This document shows positions 5,524 through 51,419 of a stretch of 64,000 nucleotides of DNA, one piece after another (position 1 is the first letter of the stretch; each line of letters opens with the position of its first letter). The notes under the pieces are model-generated. The model searched no databases, was not told the DNA's origin, and saw only the letters and a list, made by a program, of their open reading frames with translations. This DNA comes from an uncultured bacterium. GTDB lineage: Bacteria > Zixibacteria > MSB-5A5 > UBA10806. Location of the stretch: the NCBI GenBank assembly GCA_965541585.1, contig CBEUCH010000001.1, forward strand, positions 32,001 to 96,000, written 5' to 3'. The translations under genes and the position numbers were made by a program.

Positions 5524-7062
5524 ATGCAAAGGTTCGGCTCGGTCATTCTTACCATAATCGTCGGCGGCATACTTGGTGGGCTTTTCATGGTTGCGGTGCT
5601 GGGATATTTTGATAAGGCCCCGCAGGAACTCGTGGATCCGCAGGCTGACCAGAGTATCGCCCGGGACGTCGAGACCGATACGCCGGATTCAGGCCTACTT
5701 GACCGGAAGGGAATCGAGATCGATGCTGCCTCGAACGATATCGATCTGTCTCGCCGTAACGCTATTGTCCGGGCGGCGGAAGAGGTTGGAGCGGCCGTCG
5801 TATCTCTCTCTGTTATCCAGGTGGTCCATACCAGGAACACCTCGCCTTTCGGCTCTGATCTCTGGGATTTTCTTTTCCTGCCCCCGCCCAGAAGAGAAAG
5901 AGCGGTGCTATCACTGGGTTCCGGTGTCATCATCAACCCGGAGGGGTATGTCCTGACCAACGATCATGTAGTGGGTGGCGCCAAGGAGATCAGGGTTACA
6001 TTGACCAGCGGCAATGAATACCCGGGCCACTTGATCGGGACCGATCCGGTTACGGACCTGGCGGTTGTTAAGATCGTGGCGGATTCTACAGTCCTGTTCT
6101 CCAACGCAGCCCTGGGAGACTCCGATGATTTAATTATCGGTGAATGGGCAATCGCAATCGGGAATCCTTTCGGATATCTACTCGACGATCCCAAGCCGAC
6201 GGTTACAGTGGGCGTTATCTCGGCCACCAATCGCGACATAAAGCCAGAGAGAGGACAGAAGGCGACCTATCGCAAGATGATTCAGACCGATGCCGCCATC
6301 AATCCGGGTAACTCTGGGGGCCCGTTGGTGAATGCACTGGGGGAGGTAATAGGGATAAATACCTTTATTTTCACCTCCAGCCGCGGATCGGAGGGCGTGG
6401 GTTTCGCCGTACCGATTAACCGCGCTAAATTGGTTATCAACGATATATTGAAATACGGCGAGGTGGTCAAAGCATGGATCGGGCTTCAGGTGCAAACTAT
6501 CACGCCGGCGATAGCCCAAAGTCTGGAACTCAAGCGGCAGAAGGGATTGATCATCTCCTCCGTAAGCGATAGATCTCCAGCTTCTAAAGCCGGACTTAAG
6601 GCCAGCGATGTTCTTATCTCGGTTGGTCAACAGGACGTGAGCCGCCGGGCCGATTGGGAGGAGATAGAGAGCTATGCGCGAGCCGGGCGTGCCCTGGGAG
6701 TAACCGTTCATAGAGGCGAAAAGGAACTTTCCGTGGTGGTTGTGCCGGAGGAGATTCCGACCCGCCGGGCTCCCACAAAAATGGATAAATTCGGGCTGAA
6801 GGTGGCTAAGATTACGCCGTCGGTAGCGAGCTATATAGGAGTCAGAAATACCGAGGGAGTAATGGTCATGGGGGCTGAGGAATCAAGCTGGGCTGCCAGA
6901 TGGCTGCTGCAATCAGGGGATATCATCCGGCAGGTAGGAAAACGGAAGATTAGAGACCTCGATGATTACGTCGAGACGATGTCGAAAATAAAGCACGGGT
7001 TCAGGATCGTTTTTATGATCGAGCGTAGCGGTGACATATTCTTCGTCCAGGGAGTAACCTGA
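5524..7062 (+). CDS. HtrA/DegP-family serine protease with two PDZ domains
   Basis: GSGVII, TNDHV, DLAVVK, IQTDAAINPGNSGGPL. Confidence 0.93.
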   Translation: MQRFGSVILTIIVGGILGGLFMVAVLGYFDKAPQELVDPQADQSIARDVETDTPDSGLLDRKGIEIDAASNDIDLSRRNAIVRAAEEVGAAVVSLSVIQVVHTRNTSPFGSDLWDFLFLPPPRRERAVLSLGSGVIINPEGYVLTNDHVVGGAKEIRVTLTSGNEYPGHLIGTDPVTDLAVVKIVADSTVLFSNAALGDSDDLIIGEWAIAIGNPFGYLLDDPKPTVTVGVISATNRDIKPERGQKATYRKMIQTDAAINPGNSGGPLVNALGEVIGINTFIFTSSRGSEGVGFAVPINRAKLVINDILKYGEVVKAWIGLQVQTITPAIAQSLELKRQKGLIISSVSDRSPASKAGLKASDVLISVGQQDVSRRADWEEIESYARAGRALGVTVHRGEKELSVVVVPEEIPTRRAPTKMDKFGLKVAKITPSVASYIGVRNTEGVMVMGAEESSWAARWLLQSGDIIRQVGKRKIRDLDDYVETMSKIKHGFRIVFMIERSGDIFFVQGVT

Positions 7063-8774: not shown

Positions 8775-9890
8775 ATGAAGATAATTCATACATCAGCGGT
8801 CCACTTTGGGAGACCGTTCACAGATCCCGGAATGCCCGGCGATAAACTGAGGGCCGGGATAAAGTCTATTTTCTCAAAAATCATCGACATAGCTAATGAG
8901 GAATCGGCTGAACTGCTGATATTGGCCGGAGATACATTCGATAATTTGAATGTCTCCCAAAATCTGCTGGATTTCTTTATCAGCGAGGTTAAACGGTTGA
9001 ATAAGACTCGTGTGGCAGTTCTACCCGGATCTCAGGACCGATACGAAAAGGGAAGCTTCTGGGAGCAATGGAGGATACTCCAGCCGGCGGAGAATCTCTA
9101 TATTCTGGGCGATCCTGAGAAGCTGTACGTTGAGATTCCCGAGATTTCTGTTACCGTTTACGGTTATTCGCCAGCGAGCGATGATAAGGCCGATGATATT
9201 CCGGGACAGCTGAAAATCATCGATGGATCTGATTTTCATATAGCGGTTTTATATGGTCATCTGAACTCAGATCCAGATCAGAATCAAAGCGAATTCCCAT
9301 TGAGCTATGATAAGCTGGCATCTATCCCATTTGACTATATTGCATTTGGCGGCCAACCGGAGTTTCGGAGTTTCGTGGACGTCGGCTTGCGGGCCGCTTA
9401 TGCCGGTTCACCTGTGGTGCTATCGCCGGAATGGAAAGATGCCGGTAATATTCTATCAATAGATCTGCAAAAGGACTCGCTGAATGTGGAGCCAAGGAAG
9501 GTGGATGGATTCGTCTGGAAAAAGACCGAGATTTCGATGGAAGCAATAGCCAATCTGGAAGACTTGAAGAACAGGATTATCGAGATGGCCGGACCGAACA
9601 CCTCTTTGAAGGTTACTCTCTCGGGCCTGGCGCTTCTGGAGGCCGGATTGAATCTGGATCATCTTCGAGACGAACTGGAAGATCAATTTCTTCATCTCGA
9701 GTTTATCGACCGGACCAGGGTTTTGCCGGATAACATATCCGAGGTTAAGGTTCACGAGAAAACGATATTGGGCCAATACCTGAAAGTGATGGTCGATAAA
9801 TTGAACAAGGCCTCGGGGTCTGAAAAAGAGGATCTGGAAAAATCTATGAAGATCGGATATTCGCTTTTATCGGGCAGGGAGATCTGGTAA
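8775..9890 (+). CDS. SbcD/Mre11/YhaO-like metallophosphoesterase with degenerate metal-binding motifs
   Basis: HTSAVHFG, LAGDTFD, LPGSQD, DYIAFGGQP, YAGSP and YhaO-like C-terminus; adjacent to a Rad50-like ATPase. Confidence 0.85.
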   Translation: MKIIHTSAVHFGRPFTDPGMPGDKLRAGIKSIFSKIIDIANEESAELLILAGDTFDNLNVSQNLLDFFISEVKRLNKTRVAVLPGSQDRYEKGSFWEQWRILQPAENLYILGDPEKLYVEIPEISVTVYGYSPASDDKADDIPGQLKIIDGSDFHIAVLYGHLNSDPDQNQSEFPLSYDKLASIPFDYIAFGGQPEFRSFVDVGLRAAYAGSPVVLSPEWKDAGNILSIDLQKDSLNVEPRKVDGFVWKKTEISMEAIANLEDLKNRIIEMAGPNTSLKVTLSGLALLEAGLNLDHLRDELEDQFLHLEFIDRTRVLPDNISEVKVHEKTILGQYLKVMVDKLNKASGSEKEDLEKSMKIGYSLLSGREIW

Positions 9891-9891
9891 A

Positions 9892-12009
9892 ATGCAGATC
9901 TCTCATATCATATTAAAGGATTTCGGCCGGTTTGGAGACTTCTCGTGTGATTTCTCACCCGGTTTGAATCTCATCAAAGGCCCCAACGAAGCCGGCAAAT
10001 CAACCCTGGCCGAGGCCATAACGGCGGTACTCTTCGTGGACCCGGCGTCGAGGGGTGAAAAAATCCCGAGGGCCGTCAACTGGGGGGGCAGCCACGGCCC
10101 GGTAATAGAAGCGGTTTTAGATGTCGATGGCAGTTCATTCAAGCTGACCAAAGATTTCGGGCAGGGTATCGTGGAGATGTCAAAAGAGAACGAAGCGGTA
10201 TCATCGGGCGAAACCGGGACCATTAATACCTGGGTATCTGATAAACTCGGAATACCTTCCCCGGAAATCTTCAAGGCCACGGCCTGCATTGGCCAGGGAG
10301 AGATAAGCCATATTGATGATTCCATTGAAGCGATTAAGGATAAACTGGAATCGCTGGTTACCGGAGGCAGGGAAGAAATGGCCGCCTCTATTACGGTCAA
10401 GAAAATTCGCGAGAGAATGAATCAGATTGCCGGGGAAGATGGCCAATCCGGGGGAGAAATCGGAGGAATCAAGGCGCTCGTTGATGAACTCGGCTATAAT
10501 GTCGATAGGCTTCAACGCGATATTGCGAGCCTGGGAGAGAAAAGAGCCGATCTGATACAGATGGAGACTACTTTCAGAAACGTAGCCGAGGACCTGTCAT
10601 CAAGTAAAGAAAAACACAAGCTTGGTTCAGAAGCCTGTGAATATGAAAAGAGAGTCTCAGCACAGGCTTCGGAGTTTGACCAACTCGATAAGAGAATAAA
10701 GCGGGCCGGAGAGGCGAAGGAGAAAATCGAGTCATTGAAATCCGAACGATCACAATTTATGAAGATAACCCGGGATGAGATAGTCGATATCGAGCAGATT
10801 GAAAGCAGCCTGAATCACCTGTCAGCCAAATATGCCGAGCTGGAGGAAGAAGCTTTAGAGACAGAAGGAGATTTAACCGGGTATAAGACTGGCGGGATCC
10901 ATGACGTACCGTCCCTGGTAGGGTTATTGTCCAGCGGTCTTTTTGCTATTTCACATTCTCAGGGTTTTTTCCCCGAATTCTATCCTCATTTGTGGTATGC
11001 GCTTGGCGGATCTCTTGCGCTTTTAATGCTCGGCCTTTCGATTATGATCTCAAGAAGGCAACATCGCACCTTTCTATCGAAGAGGTACGATAAGCTTGCC
11101 GGTAAGCTTGATAGTCTGAAAGGAGATATTGAGAGCCGGAAGAACAGGCTGTCCGAAAAGCTTCAGCAGTTTTCAGTATCTACTGTGGAAGAGTTGAAAA
11201 GGAGCCTCTGGGGGTTAGAAGAGAATGAAAAGCGAATCGAAAAGGAGACATCGTATTATAATGAGATACTCAGCGGCCAAACCCTCGCCGATTTGCAGAA
11301 GCAGCATAGCGATCTGAGTCAGCAGTTGGAAGCTGCATCCAAGGAGAAAGAGAGATTATCGCAATATATGACTGACTCTGCAGATCTCGAGAGGCAAAAG
11401 CTGGTGATCAATGAATTCGAGGAGAGGGTTAAGGATCTGGAGCGCGAGCGAGTTATTCTCCTTCAGCAGATCGAGACCGCGGAGGGGGGATCGGAGCTTT
11501 TGGCAAGCTACCTCGAGCGTAGCGAAAGGACGAAAAACAGAATGGAGGTCCTGAAGCGCGAGCTGGCCATTCTTGAACTGACCGCCCAGTGTATTGAGGA
11601 AGCCCGCTATAATGTTCTGGTCTCGAAGCTGGATGTTTTAAATAAGCAGACATCAAAAATCCTCGACGACCTGACATCGGGCCGTTATTCGAGAGTGCGT
11701 TTCGATAGATCGAATCTGAAATTTGAAGTCTGGTCAGATGATAAGGGCGAGTGGCTTTATCCGGAGAAATGGCTCTCGGCCGGCACAATGGACCAGATAT
11801 ATCTGGCTGCCCGTCTGGCCCTTGCCGATATAGTCTCGGAGGAAAAGAACTCAATATTGATACTGGATGATCCCTTCGCCAGCTACGATGAAAAGCGGTT
11901 GGAGAACGCTATGAAGGTCATAAAGGAACTTTCGGCAAACCATCAGATTTTGCTCCTCACCAGCCAGGACCATTACGATAAATGGGCTGACTCAACCATC
12001 AATTTGTAA
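9892..12009 (+). CDS. SbcC/Rad50/YhaN-like coiled-coil ATPase with two central TM segments
   Basis: Walker A GPNEAGKST, signature LSAGT, Walker B ILILDDPF, long coiled coils. Confidence 0.88.
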   Translation: MQISHIILKDFGRFGDFSCDFSPGLNLIKGPNEAGKSTLAEAITAVLFVDPASRGEKIPRAVNWGGSHGPVIEAVLDVDGSSFKLTKDFGQGIVEMSKENEAVSSGETGTINTWVSDKLGIPSPEIFKATACIGQGEISHIDDSIEAIKDKLESLVTGGREEMAASITVKKIRERMNQIAGEDGQSGGEIGGIKALVDELGYNVDRLQRDIASLGEKRADLIQMETTFRNVAEDLSSSKEKHKLGSEACEYEKRVSAQASEFDQLDKRIKRAGEAKEKIESLKSERSQFMKITRDEIVDIEQIESSLNHLSAKYAELEEEALETEGDLTGYKTGGIHDVPSLVGLLSSGLFAISHSQGFFPEFYPHLWYALGGSLALLMLGLSIMISRRQHRTFLSKRYDKLAGKLDSLKGDIESRKNRLSEKLQQFSVSTVEELKRSLWGLEENEKRIEKETSYYNEILSGQTLADLQKQHSDLSQQLEAASKEKERLSQYMTDSADLERQKLVINEFEERVKDLERERVILLQQIETAEGGSELLASYLERSERTKNRMEVLKRELAILELTAQCIEEARYNVLVSKLDVLNKQTSKILDDLTSGRYSRVRFDRSNLKFEVWSDDKGEWLYPEKWLSAGTMDQIYLAARLALADIVSEEKNSILILDDPFASYDEKRLENAMKVIKELSANHQILLLTSQDHYDKWADSTINL

Positions 12010-12105
12010 ATCCCATCGATTTAGTATAATTTTTGCCTCGAACCGGCTGTCGGTTTAGAATTCTCTTGATTTGTCGGTCCGGATTTCTTTTTTTCATTAT
12101 GCCAT

Positions 12106-12600
12106 ATGGATAATTTATGGGCAGCTTGGCGACGAGACTTCATATTAGGCCCTAAGAAGAAGGGTTGTGTTTTTTGCACCCGGATCAGACAAAGAGCAGA
12201 TCGTCGGAATTTGATTGTTTATAGAGGCAAGCGGAATATTATCATTATGAATAAATATCCCTACAATGCCGGGCACCTGATGGTTGTGCCGAAAGCCCAT
12301 AAGGGAAAGCTCGGTAACCTGACCTCTTCCGAATCGAATGAAATGTTTGAATTGACCAGAAGATCGGTGGAGGTTCTCGAAAAGGCAATGCCTGCAGACG
12401 GCTTCAATATCGGGCTGAACATAGGTTCCGATGCCGGGGCCGGCATAAACGACCATGTTCATGTTCATATTGTTCCCCGGTTCAAGGGAGATACCAACTT
12501 CATGACCGTGGTCGGTGAAGTCAAGGTTCAGTCTTTCTCCATGGTCGATATATACGATATGATAAAGCCCGGCTTCGATCAATTGAGGACCAGATCTTGA
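12106..12600 (+). CDS. HIT domain protein (Ap4A phosphorylase-like)
   Basis: LWAxWR, CVFC, NKYPYNAGHLMVVP, HVHVHIVPR.GDTNF. Confidence 0.92.
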   Translation: MDNLWAAWRRDFILGPKKKGCVFCTRIRQRADRRNLIVYRGKRNIIIMNKYPYNAGHLMVVPKAHKGKLGNLTSSESNEMFELTRRSVEVLEKAMPADGFNIGLNIGSDAGAGINDHVHVHIVPRFKGDTNFMTVVGEVKVQSFSMVDIYDMIKPGFDQLRTRS

Positions 12601-14195
12601 GGATTCCGAAGAAAAAAGAGCTTTTAGAGCTTCAAAAAAAATATCGCACCGATAAGAAGATCGGCGAGGTCTATGGTGTCCCGGCACGTCTTGTGGCATA
12701 CTGGCGCAGCAAAAAGAAGATAGGCCCATATTCATTTCCGAAATATGGCGAGGAGAAGATCTTAGAGCTCTGGGAAAGGTACGGGGATGATGCCAGGGCG
12801 GGCGCGGAGCTCGACATCTCGGCGGCCGGTTTCAGGCAATGGAGGCGGAAATACGGAATTAGCAGAAAGCCGTTGCAATTGAGACTGGAACAGCTCGAAT
12901 TGGGTCTCATAGATCCGGGCCGGAAGAGGAATTCCCGAAGGGAGACTGCTGTGCAGAAGATACTGGCCAGAAAGTCGGGCCTCAAGAGAGTGGAGGTCGG
13001 GCAGATAGTCAACGTGGAGCCGGACCTCGCCATGTCGCATGATAATTCTGATCTGGTAATTGATTATTTCAAGCAGATCGGAGCGCCCAGGATCTGGGAT
13101 CCGAATAAAATCATAATAGTGCTGGATCGTAGAATGCCTGCCGAATCACATGAGGCCGCCGAGGCTCAGAGGACGATCAGGGAATTTGTAAAAAAACAAA
13201 AGATCAAGAATTTCTATGACATAGGCGAGGGCGTCTGTCATCAGGTAGTGGTCGAAAAGGGTTTTATGCTGCCGGGGCAGCTTGCCACAGGGACCGACTG
13301 GCATGCCACGTCGTATGGGTGCCTGGGTGCGGTATCGACCTATGTGAGCACCTCCGAAATGGCCGCGATATGGGCCGTTGGAAAGATATGGCTGCGAATC
13401 CCACCCTCATTAAAGATTATTGTCAACGGAAGCCTGGGGCGAGGAGTCTATGCCAAAGATATTATGCTGAAATTGATTCGCGATATGTCTCCCGATGCCA
13501 CAAACTACAGAGCGCTCGAGTTTCATGGTTCGACTATTGCTGGGATGTCGGTTTCGGAACGGTTCACAATGACGATTGTCGCTATGGAGATGGGGGCCAA
13601 ATCGGCGATGGTTCCATTTGATGACATCACCGGGCGATATTTGAAAAAAATCACCAAATCCCGGCTGACGCCGATCAAATCGGACCCCGATGCAATATAT
13701 GATGATGAAGTAGAGATTGACATCAGCTATCTGACCCCGCAGGTGGGCTGTCCCGAGGGCTCCAGAGGCGTGGTGCCGGTGGAGGAAACCAGCGGCAGGA
13801 GGATCGACCATGTCGTTGTCGGATCCTGCGTAAACGGCCGAATCGACGATCTGGAGATCACCGCCAGGATTCTTCGGGGGAGAAGAATTCATCGCGATCT
13901 AAGGATGATCATAGTGCCCGGCTCGCGGAAGGTGCTGACGGAGGCTCTTGACAGGGGATATATAAAGACATTCATCGAGTCCGGCTGTCTGGTTGTAAAT
14001 CCGGGTTGCTGGCCATGTCCAGGTGCTCACTCGGGAAACATCGCGAGGGGGGAGAGAGTCCTGACCGCCGCCGGCGCCGGTTATTATCGCAGTGACGAAT
14101 CTAACAATTCCGAGGTATATCTGGCTTCTCCTGCAACTGCGGCCGCCTCCGCGCTGGAGGGGGCCATCGCCGACCCCAGAAAGTATGTCAAATGA
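12597..14195 (+). CDS. Tandem-HTH fused to LeuC/HacA-like aconitase-family large subunit, degenerate active site
   Basis: About 100-aa basic N-terminus with two HTH-like repeats, then KILA..SG, GVCHQV, GSCVNGR, NPGCWPCPG, YLASPATAAASA. Confidence 0.85.
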   Translation: MRIPKKKELLELQKKYRTDKKIGEVYGVPARLVAYWRSKKKIGPYSFPKYGEEKILELWERYGDDARAGAELDISAAGFRQWRRKYGISRKPLQLRLEQLELGLIDPGRKRNSRRETAVQKILARKSGLKRVEVGQIVNVEPDLAMSHDNSDLVIDYFKQIGAPRIWDPNKIIIVLDRRMPAESHEAAEAQRTIREFVKKQKIKNFYDIGEGVCHQVVVEKGFMLPGQLATGTDWHATSYGCLGAVSTYVSTSEMAAIWAVGKIWLRIPPSLKIIVNGSLGRGVYAKDIMLKLIRDMSPDATNYRALEFHGSTIAGMSVSERFTMTIVAMEMGAKSAMVPFDDITGRYLKKITKSRLTPIKSDPDAIYDDEVEIDISYLTPQVGCPEGSRGVVPVEETSGRRIDHVVVGSCVNGRIDDLEITARILRGRRIHRDLRMIIVPGSRKVLTEALDRGYIKTFIESGCLVVNPGCWPCPGAHSGNIARGERVLTAAGAGYYRSDESNNSEVYLASPATAAASALEGAIADPRKYVK

Positions 14196-14695
14196 AGAAA
14201 ATGATCAGGGGCCGCGTCCACCGGCTGGGGCATTATATCAGTATCCGTGACATATTTCCCGACTCGCACCTTTCGTTGACCGATCCGAGTGAGATGGCGG
14301 TACATGCGCTTGAAGGCTGCGATCCCGAGCTATCGTCGAAGATCAAAAAGGGAGATATAATTGTCGCCGGCAAGAATTTCGGGAACGGACCGCAAAGGGA
14401 ACAGGCAATCCTGGCATTGAAAGAGGCCGGTGTCGCATGTGTGGCGGCAACTTCATTCGGCCGTGTTTTTTACAGGGAGACGATAAATTCCGGGATGCCG
14501 CTGGTGGAGCAGCCTGAAGCTTATGAAAAAATCAAAAACGGCGAGACCATCGAAATTGACTTGGACGCGGGAGAAATCCACTGTAAGAAAGGGCCGCTGA
14601 AATTCGATCCCCTGCCGGATTTTATGATGAGGATGCTCGATGCCGGCGGCTTGATTCGGTATACGAAGGAAACTATAAAGAATCGACATTTATAA
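14192..14695 (+). CDS. LeuD/HacB-like small subunit, degenerate
   Basis: GDIIVAGKNFGNGPQREQA, SFGRVFYRETINSG, LDAGGL; ATGA-coupled to the large subunit. Confidence 0.85.
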   Translation: MKKMIRGRVHRLGHYISIRDIFPDSHLSLTDPSEMAVHALEGCDPELSSKIKKGDIIVAGKNFGNGPQREQAILALKEAGVACVAATSFGRVFYRETINSGMPLVEQPEAYEKIKNGETIEIDLDAGEIHCKKGPLKFDPLPDFMMRMLDAGGLIRYTKETIKNRHL

Positions 14696-17517: not shown

Positions 17518-18693
17518 ATGCAAAGGAGACTGGTTAGAATCGCAAATGCGGTATTGGATCTTGAGCCTTATAACGCTGCGGAGGGACGATATCCGCGCCT
17601 GAACGATTTGCGCTCTGGGATTCTGAAATTGGATCGGAACGAAACGACGGTTGGGCCATCGCCGGCGACAATCGAGGCGATCAAGGATTTTATAGTCAAC
17701 CGTCCGTTGAATTGGTATCCCGATCCTGACGCTGAAGAGCTAAAAATAAAAATCTCCAAATATGTATCGCACCCGCTGGATCACATAAGCTGTTATGGCG
17801 GAACCGATATAGCCCTTGAACATATCGCCAGGACGTATCTTGAGCAAGGCACAGAGATGGTGATCAGTGCGCCAGTGTTTTCAAATGTGTGCGTTGCTGC
17901 GAAAAGTACCGGCGCCAGGGTAATCGAGGCATTTCACCCGGATCCGTTCAATCCAGGTATCGAAACCCTCGTGGACCATATCGGCCCTCGGACCAGGATG
18001 ATATACATCTCAAATCCAAACGATCCAACGGGGGCGCTCTTTAGCGAGGCCGAACTCGTATTCCTGCTGGCTTATGCTGAGAATGTGATGATCGTCGTGG
18101 ATGAGGCGTATTTCGAATACTGCGGCAGGTCGGCCATCGACCTGGTAAAGAGGTTTCCCAATCTCACGATTGTCAGATCGTTTTCACATGGTTTTGGTCT
18201 GGCGTCGCTGGGAGTCGGGTATATAGTCTCTGCTCCGGAGAATCTCGAGTTTATCCAGAGAATCAAAACGGGATACAGCATAAACAGCGTTGCTCAGATA
18301 GCTTCATTTGCGGCCTTAGAAAGCCATGATTACTCAAAAGAATATATGGTCGCAGTCGACCAATCCAGGAAAGTACTTTCTAGCAGTCTTCCTGAGATTG
18401 GATATGAGTTCCGGATGACGCCGGCGAATTTCTTCCTCCTTAAGGTTTCGGAGCCCGAAGAAACCGCTGAATCTTTAGAGCAGAATGGGATTCTGGTTCG
18501 AAATCTGACGGACACAAAACAAATGGATGGCTATTTGAGGGTAACTATCGGGACGCTCGAGCAGACGGACAGGTTGCTTCTGGTACTGAGCAGGCTTGCC
18601 GAGAAATTCGCCACCGGTTTCAATCGAAATCGCATAGTAGAAGGAGCGGCTGAATCCGTTGACAGGCTAAAGAAACCGGTCCCGGTAAAATGA
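17518..18693 (+). CDS. HisC-like class I/II aminotransferase-fold protein lacking the PLP lysine
   Basis: KLDRNE, YPDP, NPNDPTG, VVDEAY, RSFSHGFGLASLGVGY, LRVTIG. Confidence 0.85.
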   Translation: MQRRLVRIANAVLDLEPYNAAEGRYPRLNDLRSGILKLDRNETTVGPSPATIEAIKDFIVNRPLNWYPDPDAEELKIKISKYVSHPLDHISCYGGTDIALEHIARTYLEQGTEMVISAPVFSNVCVAAKSTGARVIEAFHPDPFNPGIETLVDHIGPRTRMIYISNPNDPTGALFSEAELVFLLAYAENVMIVVDEAYFEYCGRSAIDLVKRFPNLTIVRSFSHGFGLASLGVGYIVSAPENLEFIQRIKTGYSINSVAQIASFAALESHDYSKEYMVAVDQSRKVLSSSLPEIGYEFRMTPANFFLLKVSEPEETAESLEQNGILVRNLTDTKQMDGYLRVTIGTLEQTDRLLLVLSRLAEKFATGFNRNRIVEGAAESVDRLKKPVPVK

Positions 18694-20102
18694 TGCGAGC
18701 ATCCTTGCATAATTTTTACAGGCGGACGGGATTCGCAGCCGTCGAGGCTGCCCGAGGTGCCGCGGCATTATTGCCGTTCGGACTCAATAAACGGAGGAGT
18801 TTCTGGCGGCATCTTAAGTTTTTGAGGGAATCACAGTGGAAGCCTCCGGAGTGGCACGTTGAATATCAGGAAAAACGGCTGAGATTATTGATGGATTTTG
18901 TATCCAGGGACGTTCCGTTTTATATCGATATTCTCAGAAAGGAGAATATTGCTCCCGATTCGATCCGAAACCTCCACGATCTTGCAAAGCTGCCGGTAAT
19001 CTCGAGATCGACCCTGAAGAATAATCTGCATAGATTTCTGCCCGGGGACGCCAAGCTTGGCCCGGCGTCCCACGGGTCCGGTGCTGTTTCGAAAACTGCA
19101 TCCGGCTTTCCGGTTGAGAAAGAAGCGGCGATAATGGAGGAGGCCCTCATCGCACGACATTGGGAGAATTGCGGGTATGAGTTAGGTCAGCCGGTAATTT
19201 ATCTAACGAACAGTTCGTCCGGTAAAGAGCGTGATCCCTATGTTTACGATGGAAATCATAACCGGCATTGTTTTGACGTAAGCCTGCTGACGGCAAAAAA
19301 TCTCTCGGAGTACTGCCGAAAATTAAAGGCGACTGATGCGGATTTCATATTCGGCTATCCCAGCGCTCTCGAAATCCTGGCGGATTCTATGATTCACTGG
19401 GGAATAGAGTTCGATTTTCTCGGCGTGATGAGCGCCCGGGAACTTTTGACCGATACGGCCCGGGCGAAAATAGAAGAGGGCTTCGGCGCCAAAGTTTACG
19501 ATTGGTACGGCCTGTCGTTCCCGGCCGCAAGTATGGGGCAATGTCATTATTGTGAAGGCTATCATCTGTTTTCCGAAGGCGGAATTCTCGAGCTGGTCGA
19601 TTTCGACGGGAATCCGGTAACGAGGAAAGGGACAGTCGGGCGGATGGTCGTAACAAACCTCACGAATCATGCCATGCCCTTAATTCGATACGATACGGGA
19701 GATCTGGGGGTCTACTGCGGCGAACCATGCCGTTGCGGGAGGGGCTTGCCGAGGATCGTGGAGAAGATTCCGGGCCGAACGCAGGATCTTCTGATAAGCG
19801 ATGATGGCCGGTATATAGAGCCGGGTAGTATTTATGCCCTGTTCTCAGAGTTCGGCATACCGGCGGCGAAATTCCAGATTATCCAGAACGACAGAGGGAG
19901 TTTTTCCATCAAATTGGTTCAGGATCTCGAATGTCGTGAGGAGATAATAAGTCGTCTGAAAAAGGCGCTGGCCGAACGTATCGGCGGAGAGCCGGAGATC
20001 GCGGTGGAGGTTGTTGATAAAATCGAGGCTGAAGGCGGCGAAATCATATCAGTTACCAGAAAGTTCGGTCTTGCTAATAAAGATGCCCTGCAGCCGGCAT
20101 GA
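18690..20102 (+). CDS. Phenylacetate-CoA ligase/CapK-like adenylate-forming fold protein, degenerate
   Basis: GYPS, DWYG, VVTNLTNHAMPLIRYDTGD, CRCGRGLP, GRxxD; no TSGSTG loop. Confidence 0.82.
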   Translation: MMRASLHNFYRRTGFAAVEAARGAAALLPFGLNKRRSFWRHLKFLRESQWKPPEWHVEYQEKRLRLLMDFVSRDVPFYIDILRKENIAPDSIRNLHDLAKLPVISRSTLKNNLHRFLPGDAKLGPASHGSGAVSKTASGFPVEKEAAIMEEALIARHWENCGYELGQPVIYLTNSSSGKERDPYVYDGNHNRHCFDVSLLTAKNLSEYCRKLKATDADFIFGYPSALEILADSMIHWGIEFDFLGVMSARELLTDTARAKIEEGFGAKVYDWYGLSFPAASMGQCHYCEGYHLFSEGGILELVDFDGNPVTRKGTVGRMVVTNLTNHAMPLIRYDTGDLGVYCGEPCRCGRGLPRIVEKIPGRTQDLLISDDGRYIEPGSIYALFSEFGIPAAKFQIIQNDRGSFSIKLVQDLECREEIISRLKKALAERIGGEPEIAVEVVDKIEAEGGEIISVTRKFGLANKDALQPA

Positions 20103-33692: not shown

Positions 33693-35147
33693 ATGCGGAG
33701 ATTGATATTAACTCTGGTTTTCGTTCAGGTGCTATGTTTCTCTGTTTTAGCGGCAGATTTCTTAACCGGGGCCAGGGGCGGCGGAATGGGATTTTCGTAT
33801 TTTGTATTAGCCGACGATCCCTCGGGGGCCCTCTATAATCCCTCCGGACCCGGTTTTGCAAGAGGCTTGCAATCTCAGCTTATGTATAACAACCGAAATA
33901 ATTATGACTATCCCGGCTGGCCGGAGAATCCTTACGGCGGCCAGTTCGCAGTCGTTTATTACCGTCCTGAATTCGGCGCGCTTGCTCTCAACACAATTCA
34001 GAGCGGCTCGATGTCTGAGGTAACCGGTATCCCGACTATAAACCACGCCGTCCTTACTTATGGTAGAGAGCTTGCTCCGGGCATGTCGGCCGGTGTCTCG
34101 GCAAAATACCTGAGTGAATCCATGTTTGGCGAGCGCTCGGCATTCGATTTTGATCTGGGAGTCTCCTTCAGAACCCGCGTCGGCATAATAGCAGCTGCCG
34201 TAGCCGAGAATGTTATCCGATCCAAATTGTCGCCGGAATATTCAGGCACCGCCGAATATCTGCCTCGTCGTGAACGACTCGGGCTGGGGTATTCTCACAA
34301 CGCAAGGGAGTGGCAAGCCGTTTTTGTGTTAGCGGGCCAACTGGAGGAATCCGGTATTTCGCAGAAATATATAACGGCACTTTTAAACCTCGGCACGGAA
34401 TGCTGGTTCATACCGAACAGACAGATCTCTTTAGGGGCTCGTGCGGGATATACTTTCGGCAAGGGTGTAAGATATGACATAGAGAGCGACTATTCCAGTT
34501 TGTCAACCGGGATTTCAGTCAACTTCAAGATTGGCGTCAGCGATTTAAGGCTGGATTATTCACTGGTAACTTATCCGTATGAGACTGCAGACGGCTCGAC
34601 CCCTCTGGATCATTTTCTGGGGTTAACCTACGGCTGGGGCGGCGTGCCAAAGTATGATATTCATGGCGATGGATATTCCGCGCGGGGCCAAACTGAGCCG
34701 TATGTGAGGCATCAATCTACAGAACCACCGGAGATTTTCAATCCTCCGCCGGATTCCAAGATAAAACCCCCGGTTATTGATAAAGATACTAATTTCAGGC
34801 GTCGCCGTTACCTGCATTTTGATGTGGATATGGATGTGGCTGATATTTCTTCAAAGGACTTCAAGAGGATCGTTTTCTATTTCAGGCCTCAACGAATAAT
34901 TAAGACGAATAGCTGGAAGCTATATGTATTCAAAGCCAAGATCAAAAACTGGTCCGACGGTGAAATCCTCCGCTGGGCCTTGAAAGTTATCAAAGGAAAC
35001 GGGCTCCCTCCCATAAACGTGGTCTGGGATGGAAAATCAGGCGATGGGACACTCCTGCCGGCAGGAAAATATTATTATATAATGACCGCCGAGGATCCGC
35101 AGGGACAGCGTTTCGTCACAAAATGGCATAAGTTCAAATTGGAATAG
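33693..35147 (+). CDS. PorV/UPF0164-like outer membrane barrel with C-terminal FlgD-Ig-like domain
   Basis: GARGGGMG...ADDPSGALYNPSG N-terminal motif; C-terminal VVWDGK..DG.LLP.G.YYY. Confidence 0.7.
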   Translation: MRRLILTLVFVQVLCFSVLAADFLTGARGGGMGFSYFVLADDPSGALYNPSGPGFARGLQSQLMYNNRNNYDYPGWPENPYGGQFAVVYYRPEFGALALNTIQSGSMSEVTGIPTINHAVLTYGRELAPGMSAGVSAKYLSESMFGERSAFDFDLGVSFRTRVGIIAAAVAENVIRSKLSPEYSGTAEYLPRRERLGLGYSHNAREWQAVFVLAGQLEESGISQKYITALLNLGTECWFIPNRQISLGARAGYTFGKGVRYDIESDYSSLSTGISVNFKIGVSDLRLDYSLVTYPYETADGSTPLDHFLGLTYGWGGVPKYDIHGDGYSARGQTEPYVRHQSTEPPEIFNPPPDSKIKPPVIDKDTNFRRRRYLHFDVDMDVADISSKDFKRIVFYFRPQRIIKTNSWKLYVFKAKIKNWSDGEILRWALKVIKGNGLPPINVVWDGKSGDGTLLPAGKYYYIMTAEDPQGQRFVTKWHKFKLE

Positions 35148-48023: not shown

Positions 48024-49418
48024 TTACTCTTCCGGATCCCCCTCGTCGTTAAATTCTTCGTCCGTATCGTCAATCTTCTTTCGCTCAGCCTGTACGCTGG
48101 ATCTATCGAGCAGTGCGAATTTATTGTTCTTGCCGCGGATTACCTTAAACAGGATGAAATTGTCATCTTCGTCTAAACCGTCCATTGTGTCGGTGAACGT
48201 TTCGAAGTCGGGAGTCTTTTTATGATTGACTGTTATGATAACGTCGCCCTCGAATAAATCCCCCTTGGCGGCGACGCTGCCGATCTCCACAAAGGATACA
48301 TAGACACCTTCTCTGCTTTCCAGAAGGTATGTGCTGTACATGTTTTCCGTAATCTCTTTGACGGTATAGCCGAGTTCAGACTCGTACTTCTCGGCCTTCA
48401 CCTTGGGCTGCTGCCCGATCGTGATTTCGATATTCTTGACTTTTCCATTCCGCAGCAGCCTGATGGTTTTGGTAGCGTTCACAGGAGTCTGAGAAACGGT
48501 CAGGGTAAACCGGTTCAAATCGTCCCTTTTTTCCGCCTGGAGAGTCTGATCGCCGAATTCCAGAAGAACATCACCCGGTTTCATACCAGCCTCCTCTGCC
48601 GGTGAACCCTCTAAGATATCGGCGACGAGTATGCCTTCGAGTTCGGGATCATCGAGGTACCTGGCGAAACTGCGGCTGACCGGCTGGATAACGATCCCGA
48701 GCCATCCGCGTTCAATCTTGCCCGATAAAAGAAGGTTGTTTTTAACCTCTACGGCGATGTTAATGGGGATCGTGAATCCCTGAGTACGCCCCAAGCCGCG
48801 AGAGTTTATGCCGATCACCTCTCCCCGGAGGTTTACCAGCGGTCCTCCGGATGATCCCGGTGCGATTGCAGCATCGGTCTGAATAAAGTCGTTTAAGAGG
48901 GGTGTCAGCAAGGGTACATTCAGCACCCTCCCCTTGCCGGAGACTATGCCGAAAGATACGCTTCGGTCAAAACCGTAAGGGTTGCCAACAGCCATGACCC
49001 ATTCGCCCACCTGCACCGAGTCGGAATTGCCCAGTGCGGCCGCCTTCAACACCAGATCCTCAGGAACCTCTATCTTAAGAAGCGCCAGGTCGGTCAGTTT
49101 GTCGGTACCGACAACCTCCGCCCTGAATTCCCGGTACGATTCCAGAGTGACCATCACTTCGATATGATCAACTATTACGTGCTCGTTGGTGAGAATATGG
49201 CCTTCGGTGTCGATTATGAGTCCCGAACCCAACGATTCATACCGCTGGTTGTTCCTTTTTTTTACGACCTCAATATGCACAACGGACGGTTTAATGGAAT
49301 CGGAGACCGAGATTATCAGGGATTTGAGCCTGTCGAAAATCTCAAGGCCGCCGTCGTCGGATCTCGCTGTCCCGAATGTGACGAGGAGCAAAAGTGCTGT
49401 CATTAGAGTTTTTTTCAT
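48024..49418 (-). CDS. HtrA/DegP-family serine protease with two PDZ domains
   Basis: GSGLII, TNEHV, DLALLK, IQTDAAIAPGSSGGPL. Confidence 0.9.
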   Translation of the reverse strand: MKKTLMTALLLLVTFGTARSDDGGLEIFDRLKSLIISVSDSIKPSVVHIEVVKKRNNQRYESLGSGLIIDTEGHILTNEHVIVDHIEVMVTLESYREFRAEVVGTDKLTDLALLKIEVPEDLVLKAAALGNSDSVQVGEWVMAVGNPYGFDRSVSFGIVSGKGRVLNVPLLTPLLNDFIQTDAAIAPGSSGGPLVNLRGEVIGINSRGLGRTQGFTIPINIAVEVKNNLLLSGKIERGWLGIVIQPVSRSFARYLDDPELEGILVADILEGSPAEEAGMKPGDVLLEFGDQTLQAEKRDDLNRFTLTVSQTPVNATKTIRLLRNGKVKNIEITIGQQPKVKAEKYESELGYTVKEITENMYSTYLLESREGVYVSFVEIGSVAAKGDLFEGDVIITVNHKKTPDFETFTDTMDGLDEDDNFILFKVIRGKNNKFALLDRSSVQAERKKIDDTDEEFNDEGDPEE

Positions 49419-49874: not shown

Positions 49875-51419
49875 ATGAAGTTTGTTGCTCAGCTTAGAAG
49901 TGTACTCTGGGTCCTTGCCCTGGGGGCTATTTTCATGCTGGCGGGCATGATAATTGGCTCCAACTTCACAATTCCAGAAAAATTGAAAGCTGAGAGCCAT
50001 TCGGATCCTCAGAAGCAATCTCCTGGCGCTGAGTTCGAACAGATAGCACCTGTGAAGGGTCATTCTCCCTTCGTCTATGTAGCCGAGATGGTGAAACCGG
50101 CGGTGGTCAATATATCGGCGGAATCAGTGACCGAGGATAGATTTCACTCGTTCATGGATGATGATTTTTTCAGGCGGTTCTTCGGATTGCCTGATGATGA
50201 GAGAAATCGTCAGCCGCGTCTGAGGCGTTCGGAATCGCTTGGATCGGGTTTCATCATTTCCCCGGATGGATTCATTTTGACCAATAACCATGTGGTTAAG
50301 GATGCGGAGAAAGTGACGGTGACGTTATCCGATCAGCATCACTATAGAGCCGAGATCGTCGGCACTGATTCGGAGACCGATCTGGCATTGCTGAAAATAG
50401 ATACGGATTATGATCTTCCCATTATAACCGTTGGCGATTCCGATTCCATCCTTGTCGGTGATTGGGTGATGGCTATAGGTAATCCGTTTCCGTATCTGGG
50501 ATTGGATCGTACTGTGACAGTAGGCGTGGTATCGGCAAAGGGGAGGAAAGGCCTGATATTCGGCGGCGATATGCCGTCATATCAAAATTATATCCAGACT
50601 GATGCCTCCATCAATCCGGGGAACTCAGGGGGTCCGCTGGTCAACCTTCAGGGAGAGGCGATTGGAGTAAATTCTGCTATTGCCTCCCCATCAGGTGGCA
50701 ACGTGGGGATCGGTTTTGCGATACCGATCAATCTGGCCAAGCAGGTGGCCGATCAACTCAGGGAGTCGGGGATAGTCTCCCGCGGTTATCTCGGTATCTA
50801 TCCTCAGGACATAACATTCGAGTTGAAGGAAGCGAATGGCCTGCCGTCAACCGACGGAATCCTCGTGGCGCAGGTTGACAAGGGCACACCGGCGGATGGA
50901 TCAACGCTGAAAGTCGGTGATGTCATAGTCAAATTCAACGGTGTTAAGATCACCGATGCTCAGCAATTTCGTTTTCTGGTGGCTGATGCCGGGCCGGACA
51001 ATGAGGCGCGGTTGGAGATCTGGCGTAATGGTGGTTTTAAAAATATTAAGGTCGAGCTGGGTGATAGAATGGATTACGTTGACGCCCGACTTCCATCGAC
51101 CGAGAAGGAGCAGGAGGATGGCGAGTGGCTCGGCCTGGAGGTCGAGACCCCGACCGCGGACAACGCCGAGCAATTTGGAGTAGATGTTGAGCCCGGCGCT
51201 CTTATCACATCGGTCGTGCCGGGAAGCCCGGCCGACTACGCCGGATTGATGGCCGGAGATATAATTCTTAAAATTGGCGGCATAGATATTGAAAATGCCG
51301 GCGATTTCTTTAATGTTGCAGATGATTTGAGAGGCAGCTCTAAGCCGATATCTTTTTATATTAGCAGAGGGATTTCCAGAATCTTCGTGGCTGTGATCCC
51401 CGAAAGTAAGCGGCAATAA
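49875..51419 (+). CDS. Do/DegQ family serine protease
   Basis: FFRRFFG loop, GSGFII, TNNHV, IQTDASINPGNSGGPL, two PDZ domains. Confidence 0.94.
   Translation: MKFVAQLRSVLWVLALGAIFMLAGMIIGSNFTIPEKLKAESHSDPQKQSPGAEFEQIAPVKGHSPFVYVAEMVKPAVVNISAESVTEDRFHSFMDDDFFRRFFGLPDDERNRQPRLRRSESLGSGFIISPDGFILTNNHVVKDAEKVTVTLSDQHHYRAEIVGTDSETDLALLKIDTDYDLPIITVGDSDSILVGDWVMAIGNPFPYLGLDRTVTVGVVSAKGRKGLIFGGDMPSYQNYIQTDASINPGNSGGPLVNLQGEAIGVNSAIASPSGGNVGIGFAIPINLAKQVADQLRESGIVSRGYLGIYPQDITFELKEANGLPSTDGILVAQVDKGTPADGSTLKVGDVIVKFNGVKITDAQQFRFLVADAGPDNEARLEIWRNGGFKNIKVELGDRMDYVDARLPSTEKEQEDGEWLGLEVETPTADNAEQFGVDVEPGALITSVVPGSPADYAGLMAGDIILKIGGIDIENAGDFFNVADDLRGSSKPISFYISRGISRIFVAVIPESKRQ

Follow-up and report, generated by a model that had tools for sequence, protein, structure and literature searches.

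A near-universal tandem helix-turn-helix head on a decaying LeuC/HacA-type body in the Zixibacteria

A fusion gene in an uncultured member of the Zixibacteria (MSB-5A5; UBA10806) encodes a tandem helix-turn-helix (HTH) head joined to a LeuC/HacA-type body of the aconitase fold, and we suggest that its product is a core DNA-binding protein carried on a pseudoenzyme scaffold, for which an iron-sulfur (Fe-S) cluster is not required. The gene lies in a stretch of 64,000 nucleotides (assembly GCA_965541585.1, contig CBEUCH010000001.1, positions 32,001 to 96,000), referred to below as the window. We consider this reading rather probable; the fusion would then be a phylum-wide core DNA-binding protein whose working part is the N-terminal 105 residues, in which two HTH units would grip DNA and a conserved short tag would dock on a conserved partner protein, with the body retained as a folding or oligomer scaffold. 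An earlier note on this DNA had proposed a dedicated two-subunit Fe-S-sensing regulator acting on the adjacent polysaccharide operon. Its tandem HTH head, its crippled LeuC/HacA body and LeuD-like subunit, and a likely nonmetabolic role all stand, but the Fe-S sensor, the two-subunit composition, and the target operon are not supported.

The tandem HTH head and its candidate clamp-binding tag

Three overlapping plus-strand open reading frames (ORFs) in the window code for a HIT protein, the fusion, and a small subunit, with the fusion ORF overlapping the HIT ORF upstream and the small-subunit ORF downstream by 4 nucleotides each. The main features are as follows.

12106..12600, + strand: HIT-family protein, nearest to mycobacterial diadenosine tetraphosphate (Ap4A) phosphorylase (Pfam HIT; 3ano, E 1e-31); constant upstream partner of the fusion
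12597..14195, + strand: fusion gene, with tandem HTH head, clamp-motif-like tag, and LeuC/HacA-type body; TTG start, 532 amino acids
12612..12713, + strand: HTH unit 1, residues 6-39; AlphaFold2 predicted local distance difference test (pLDDT) ~90
12750..12854, + strand: HTH unit 2, residues 52-86; AlphaFold2 pLDDT ~91
12891..12908, + strand: QLELGL, residues 99-104, candidate hexameric beta-clamp-binding motif; Q99 invariant, low model confidence
12945..14195, + strand: aconitase domains 1-3 (LeuC/HacA type), pseudoenzyme, from profile matches and structure-chain alignment
13827-13829, 14007-14009, and 14016-14018, + strand: cluster cysteine codons, from alignment
14192..14695, + strand: LeuD/HacB-type small subunit without the DTD and GSSRE motifs; 167 amino acids; not found in five close relatives

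The head is present in 265 of 285 Zixibacteria genomes, including 194 of the 198 of good quality, and as a single match in all but three. Source names place the fusion family in the Zixibacteria; among the loci listed (80 of 215), some records bear submitter labels of other phyla. We read 76 loci, comprising the window, 15 others, and a further 60 picked for long contigs and family spread (and thus not at random), which span 19 coded families and two unplaced records. None of the genomes read has lost the body: 74 of the 76 fusion ORFs code for 453 to 589 amino acids, and the other two (90 and 317 amino acids) look broken and were left out, giving 74 full-length loci. At three loci (L047, L065, and L099) the fusion ORF is split or shortened (90, 453+72, and 317+199 amino acids), possibly through assembly errors.

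Conservation is concentrated in the head. Among the 65 loci with degenerate bodies, between-family identity is 61% for the head and 26% for the body, and among the 9 with canonical bodies it is 68% and 74%, respectively. DnaN proteins of other orders are 45 to 55% identical to that of this genome and heads ~47 to 63%, such that the head is at least as conserved as DnaN.

Both HTH repeats quoted in the earlier note are present in the fusion N terminus, and this region does model as an HTH protein. An AlphaFold2 model built from 71 aligned heads (mean pLDDT 84) has helices at residues 6-16, 19-26, and 30-39 and again at 52-62, 65-71, and 76-86, forming two three-helix units (6-39 and 52-86), followed by a low-confidence stretch from about residue 93. 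L32, Y35, W36, and K39 in unit 1 and W59, G63, D65, W82, R83, and Y86 in unit 2 are invariant in 71 of 71 heads. Distant relatives of the head are multirepeat HTH_23-type proteins, and for unit 2 weak HTH_23/HTH_50 matches are seen in the homologs P0091 and P0148; the window head itself matches no Pfam or NCBIfam family at cut-off, and its profile gave just four weak, unrelated-looking matches among the sequences of solved structures. The best VIA-align matches, for unit 1, are a phage immunity repressor (7tz1, Z 6.0) and the GcrA DNA-binding domain (5yiu, Z 5.2), both at a generic level, and nearly all of the top fold matches are DNA-binding domains. The fold, together with basic and aromatic residues that are invariant on the third helix of each unit, points to a predicted DNA-binding module.

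Four proteins (P0149, P0155, P0160, and P0124) contain several repeats of the head-type HTH unit and are of unplaced origin; it is possible that such repeat proteins are the source of the head. There are also 38 short head matches, mostly on short contigs or in records marked partial. One of them, P0148 (106 amino acids, on a 58-kb contig), is a possible stand-alone head that ends in a clamp-motif-like EQLEMPLE; its locus was not returned by the metagenome scan.

Following the HTH units is a short tag, residues 99-104 (QLELGL), with an invariant Q99, hydrophobic residues at 100, 102, and 104, and a free position 103. The hexameric clamp-binding motif is given as Q-aliphatic-x-L-x-L or Q-aliphatic-x-[L/M]-x-[F/L], and measured binders include Pol IV (QLVLGL), Pol III (QVELEF), and Hda (QLSLPL), according to the available excerpts of 10.64898/2026.05.27.728225 and 10.1101/2025.08.20.671105. 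The consensus is fitted strictly by 53 of 71 heads, and by 70 of 71 if M at position 2, F at position 4, or I at position 6 is permitted and position 5 is left free. The hydrophobic period of the tag is strand-like (moment 2.73 at 170 degrees versus 0.59 at 100), and a variable linker of 9 to 24 residues follows it. A conserved hexamer was found in none of 18 neighboring gene clusters (the best has 4 of 8, and one cluster is an antisense frame). In DnaN, residues H174, M366, P367, L368, and R369, which we take to form the clamp pocket, are invariant in 29 of 29 proteins. That the tag binds the sliding clamp DnaN is a prediction to which we would give slightly less than an even chance; DnaN would nonetheless be the first partner to consider, with the head tethered to newly replicated or repaired DNA as a chromosome-cycle factor, ahead of RNA polymerase or a sigma factor as the second, and of another subunit or the body itself.

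Decay of the enzyme body

By fold, the window body belongs to the LeuC/HacA subfamily. Residues 117-528 score above the NCBIfam cut-offs for PRK00402, hacA_fam, and IPMI_arch, and the small ORF above that for LEUD_arch; profiles and structure-chain alignment identify both aconitase domains 1-3 and a separate domain 4 in the pair. Comparison with solved isopropylmalate/citramalate isomerase chains (4nqy for the large subunit and 3vba for the small) bears out all of the altered residues reported earlier: DH to DR, DSHT to DWHA (ADSHT in the template), NM to IV, and STSNRNFRGR to TAAGAGYYRS in the large subunit, and DTDA to SIRD and GCGSSRE to GNGPQRE in the small one, with loss of the catalytic serine. 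The three cluster cysteines (C411, C471, and C474) are indeed retained, as are H148-D149, D177, H215, D234, and H236, so that the decay is only partial; 11 of 20 scored canonical sites are kept, and the substrate and catalytic motifs (DH, DSHT, and NRNFxGR) are lost. According to the available part of PMC8184944, a serine (Ser642 in mitochondrial aconitase) acts as general base, and the cluster is bound by three cysteines. The general-base serine presumably maps to the GSSRE motif. Because both serines of that motif are replaced, the large and small subunits of the window are very probably inactive as a pair.

The gene is not part of a leu/lys operon. In agreement with the earlier note, a Pfam scan of 44 window ORFs turned up no leucine or lysine pathway gene; the contig does carry an intact leuC-x-leuD-leuB cluster, ~77 kb from the fusion and beyond the window. 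Besides the fusion, this genome codes for three aconitase-family large subunits in which the canonical motifs are present, one of them in that cluster, and further members of the aconitase family were matched in every one of the 25 genomes tested. A canonical LeuC/HacA gene stands at the end of contig C1 (G000:C1:455995-457239), and a LeuD/HacB gene with isocitrate dehydrogenase opens contig C11 (L003 623-1129); these contigs may join, and the pair may act as the aconitase. A single-chain homoaconitase above TIGR00139 is located near a PrpD-like gene (L004 7996-9966 and 11344-12777).

The body is under purifying selection, with a ratio of nonsynonymous to synonymous substitution rates (dN/dS) of 0.08 to 0.13 in four close pairs from the window's family, although values reach ~0.4 in families f7 and f20. 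These low ratios rule out a pseudogene, and a sequencing artifact is ruled out by identical changes in four close homologs. A full-length fold computed without an alignment (mean pLDDT 35) gave no reliable packing of head, tag, and body.

Across the family, the body ranges from apparently intact to extensively degenerate. In nine of the 74 loci, which belong to families f4, f15, f16, and f17, every scored motif is intact and a canonical LeuD follows a short way downstream, and all 20 scored canonical sites are present in 55 of the 120 closest homologs; by the earlier note's own reasoning, the existence of fusions with canonical residues tells in part against its proposal. The remaining 65 loci are degenerate and share no common new consensus at the old active site, where positions differ even inside one family; what is retained consists mainly of Gly, Pro, Asp, and Ala residues of a structural kind. 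All three cysteines are present in 22 of the 74 loci, which are the nine canonical ones together with 10 of 12 in the window's family, one of five in f2, and two of five in f10. No locus of the other 11 families or of the two unplaced records has them, and in the window's own family the set is no longer complete at two loci.

The small subunit can be lost. Among 13 loci of the window's family, LeuD is degenerate in six and not adjacent in five, and the other two are at a contig edge. In the five genomes lacking an adjacent LeuD, all 14 LeuD-like matches carry the canonical GSSRE. At one locus of family f12 (L102, genome G202), the large subunit is fully degenerate and has none of the cluster cysteines, and the gene directly after it codes for a canonical-looking LeuD (NTD, GSSRE).

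The five canonical genomes do not form one clade when 29 genomes are placed on a DnaN tree (approximately unbiased test, p-AU 0.002). Provided that DnaN follows the species phylogeny, this suggests that the ancestor was intact and that loss was repeated; the body thus probably decayed more than once (trees were built with FastTree and quick IQ-TREE). We envisage an ancestor that was one bifunctional protein, with a DNA-binding head and an active LeuC/HacA hydro-lyase partnered by LeuD. Further intact LeuC/D paralogs would have made its catalysis redundant, and it would have been lost more than once, with the substrate residues going first, then the small subunit, and then the cluster cysteines. 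The window's copy would represent an early stage of this decay and probably retains a [4Fe-4S] cluster, either as a structural element or as a vestige.

Competing explanations

Several observations weigh against a core DNA-binding head with a clamp-binding tag on a repeatedly decayed scaffold. Foldseek returned no match for the head at E 0.001 in either PDB or a viral library, and the fold matches obtained are weak (best Z 6.0), with a protein that does not bind DNA, the carbamoyl-phosphate synthetase large chain, at rank 23. No operator was evident by eye upstream of the HIT gene in 76 loci, with only promoter-like elements there, nor between dnaA and dnaN in 29 genomes, with only DnaA-box-like and AT-rich repeats, and an intergenic word scan found each word in at most 7 families versus up to 6 in shuffles; these searches covered little DNA, and a site may well exist beyond it. 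The strict hexamer is common by chance, occurring in 108 of 2817 ORFs of this genome, so a single match means little, and because a conserved internal match is present in DnaN itself (23 of 29), the only such case in 19 control families, a structural strand is able to mimic the tag pattern. AlphaFold2 draws residues 93-104 as a low-confidence helix rather than as extended, and conservation reaches upstream of the tag (P92, L95, and L97), further than a bare clamp motif would account for. In the body's own tree a branch separates the degenerate copies from the canonical ones, as would be compatible with one loss, although long branches meet there. Finally, the 65 nearest degenerate homologs keep the cysteines in 58, 55, and 61 cases, versus 5 to 19 for H178, S235, H236, R494, and R499; for positions that do not vary in the canonical set, the median is 41.

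A more specific and tentative form of the proposal, which we regard as possible though on balance doubtful, is that the fusion is an essential phylum-specific clamp partner, in which QLxLxL/F fastens the tandem HTH head to DnaN and an Fe-S hydro-lyase serves as its carrier. A metabolic Fe-S enzyme would have been physically coupled to the replication clamp in the ancestor, and would still be so in four families, coexpressed with an Ap4A-degrading HIT enzyme in a phylum with no evident Hda; elsewhere there would have been stepwise decay to a scaffold, and the cluster may still tune the protein in the window's family. As context only, no Hda-like paralog is evident: this genome has a single DnaA-family match, and of 30 others just 5 have additional matches, all weak.

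It is also conceivable, if rather unlikely, that the fusion is a global transcription factor of the GcrA/CarD kind, in which the HTH pair sits on promoter DNA, the conserved stretch KPxxLxLEQLEL binds RNA polymerase or sigma rather than the clamp, and the body is a scaffold as before. A core, single-copy distribution and strong conservation would suit such a factor, as would the extension of conservation beyond the six-residue motif and the ranking of the GcrA DNA-binding domain (Z 5.2) with the best fold matches. That match is at the level of HTH domains generally, however, and no promoter element beyond the -35 and -10 is common to the loci; moreover, the invariant Q, the free fifth position, and the variable linker after the tag fit a clamp motif.

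The dedicated two-subunit [4Fe-4S]-sensing regulator of the earlier note, in which the state of the cluster switches DNA binding, we now consider unlikely and at most a lineage-specific layer in the window's family. There is precedent in the cluster-switched RNA binding of aconitase/IRP1 (available excerpt of PMC7435893), the body is under selection, and the preferential retention of the cysteines relative to substrate residues, both in the window's family and in the near degenerate homologs, indicates that the window's lineage probably still binds a cluster. A structural role of that cluster explains these data as well as sensing does. However, because only 22 of 74 loci keep all three cysteines, Fe-S sensing is not the family's core role; the ligands are not conserved wherever the head is, and the head hardly changes across the 11 families that have no three-cysteine loci. 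A two-subunit composition fares no better, since 5 of the 11 informative loci in the window's own family are without an adjacent LeuD and no degenerate copy is found elsewhere in those five genomes, and the polysaccharide operon is not a conserved neighbor in the 76 loci, the conserved neighbor being the HIT gene.

Less probable still is a repurposed body, in which a small ligand, such as Ap4A or a product of the HIT enzyme, or a new reaction controls the head. AcnX, an aconitase fold retooled with other residues (in the available part of PMC8184944), illustrates that this can occur, and both the constancy of the HIT gene and the retention of the body under selection would be accommodated. Against a new function are the old active site, with no new consensus and differences even within one family, and the mostly structural character of the retained positions. 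That the head is a protein- or RNA-binding oligomerization module, and the whole a decaying enzyme with a tag, is improbable, since the missing operator and the carbamoyl-phosphate synthetase row among the weak Foldseek matches are set against the invariant basic and aromatic residues of both third helices, the HTH_23-type repeat relatives, and the DNA-binding domains that dominate the fold matches.

Genomic setting, known systems, and implications

The HIT gene lies no more than 1.5 kb upstream of the fusion in 76 of 76 loci, often overlapping it, and the genes downstream vary. In the window, the HIT ORF scores 135 bits against an NCBIfam ATP adenylyltransferase cut-off of 290 and is thus below threshold. 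Two further features lie upstream.

8775..12009, + strand: SbcD/SbcC (Mre11/Rad50)-like pair (Pfam Metallophos and AAA_23/SMC_N)
12066..12093, + strand: sigma-70-like promoter candidate near the HIT start (TTGATT, 16-nucleotide spacing, degenerate T-rich -10), read by eye

The SbcD/SbcC-like pair precedes the HIT gene in five families and is not universal, with an SbcC-like cluster at 26 of 76 loci. Aligned upstream regions, read by eye, show in most families a TTG(A/C)...TA(T)AAT/TATATT/TATTTT pattern that ends ~5 to 15 nucleotides before the HIT start, and most have no evident ribosome-binding site before that start (L050-L109; window 12066-12108); families f15-f18 have a longer HIT leader, mostly with an AGGA(G)-like element. 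The HIT-fusion transcript is therefore probably leaderless or has a short leader. Our assignment of the promoter to 12066..12093 is putative, and a promoter scan listed another site, 12033-12061, and not this one.

A large polysaccharide/capsule cluster occupies window positions 15058-35144 and includes Poly_export/SLBB, heparinase II/III, glycosyltransferase, sugar transferase, and Wzi genes, along with two ORFs (18690-20102 and 33693-35147) that have no Pfam match. Regulation of this operon by the fusion was considered and rejected, as it is not conserved beside the fusion. The window also codes for three DegP/HtrA-type proteases (5524-7062, 48027-49418, and 49875-51419), the latter two being divergent and followed by a sigma-70-family gene and PadR. 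At the loci read for dnaN (L110-L138), a run of ATT repeats is conserved by eye upstream of the gene, following a CACA/CAACA-like element and often with few perfect DnaA boxes; we take this run to resemble an origin unwinding element.

Among known systems, the closest in fold are the archaeal-type isopropylmalate/citramalate isomerases and homoaconitase (PDB 4nqy, 4kp1, 4kp2, 3vba, and 2pkp; PRK00402, TIGR01343, TIGR02086, and TIGR02087), with which the window pair shares domains 1-3, a separate domain 4, the three cysteines, and scores above cut-off. In contrast to LeuC/HacA-LeuD/HacB enzymes, the fusion has an additional 116-residue head, altered DH, DSHT, NM, and NRNFxGR motifs, and a location outside a leu/lys operon, and its small subunit is without DTD and the general-base serine. 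The head resembles HTH_23-type repeat proteins, the GcrA DNA-binding domain, and 7tz1 in having three-helix HTH units in tandem, a similarity that is generic (Z up to 6.0).

Enzymes linked to nucleic acid binding offer a second comparison. Some enzyme-regulator fusions, reportedly including PutA and NadR, combine the two functions in one chain. BirA likewise has a DNA-binding domain and an enzyme in one chain (available excerpt of PMC7435893), an arrangement that is present by sequence in the nine canonical loci, although not in the window copy. Unlike proteins of the BirA/PutA type, the fusion has no visible link to a cognate pathway operon, and its head persists with a dead enzyme in 65 of 74 loci. 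The aconitase fold is also associated with nucleic acid binding in IRP1 and bacterial aconitases (same excerpt); these moonlighting enzymes bind RNA through the cleft of an active enzyme after cluster loss, whereas the fusion has a separate HTH pair and most of its family no longer has the cluster ligands.

The clamp partners Hda, Pol IV, Pol III alpha, and RecB share a Q-L-x-L-x-L/F motif in a flexible stretch, and QLELGL is one position from the Pol IV QLVLGL; as far as the available excerpts on these proteins describe them, none is a tandem-HTH or aconitase protein, and clamp binding by the fusion is predicted from its motif. Judged from literature listings and the beginnings of abstracts, no paper on the fusion was found, and supplements such as Zixibacteria genome tables could list the gene; the clamp-motif tag on the fusion is a new observation here.

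Databases label the fusion as a leucine enzyme, and leucine or lysine pathway calls for Zixibacteria made from this gene are therefore unsafe. The family is also a natural series from an apparently intact enzyme to a cofactor-less scaffold. A near-universal, single-copy head as conserved as the sliding clamp points to undiscovered core machinery of the chromosome or of transcription in this phylum and, if the clamp motif is real, the fusion would define a new kind of beta-clamp partner and connect a metabolic Fe-S enzyme directly to DNA replication.

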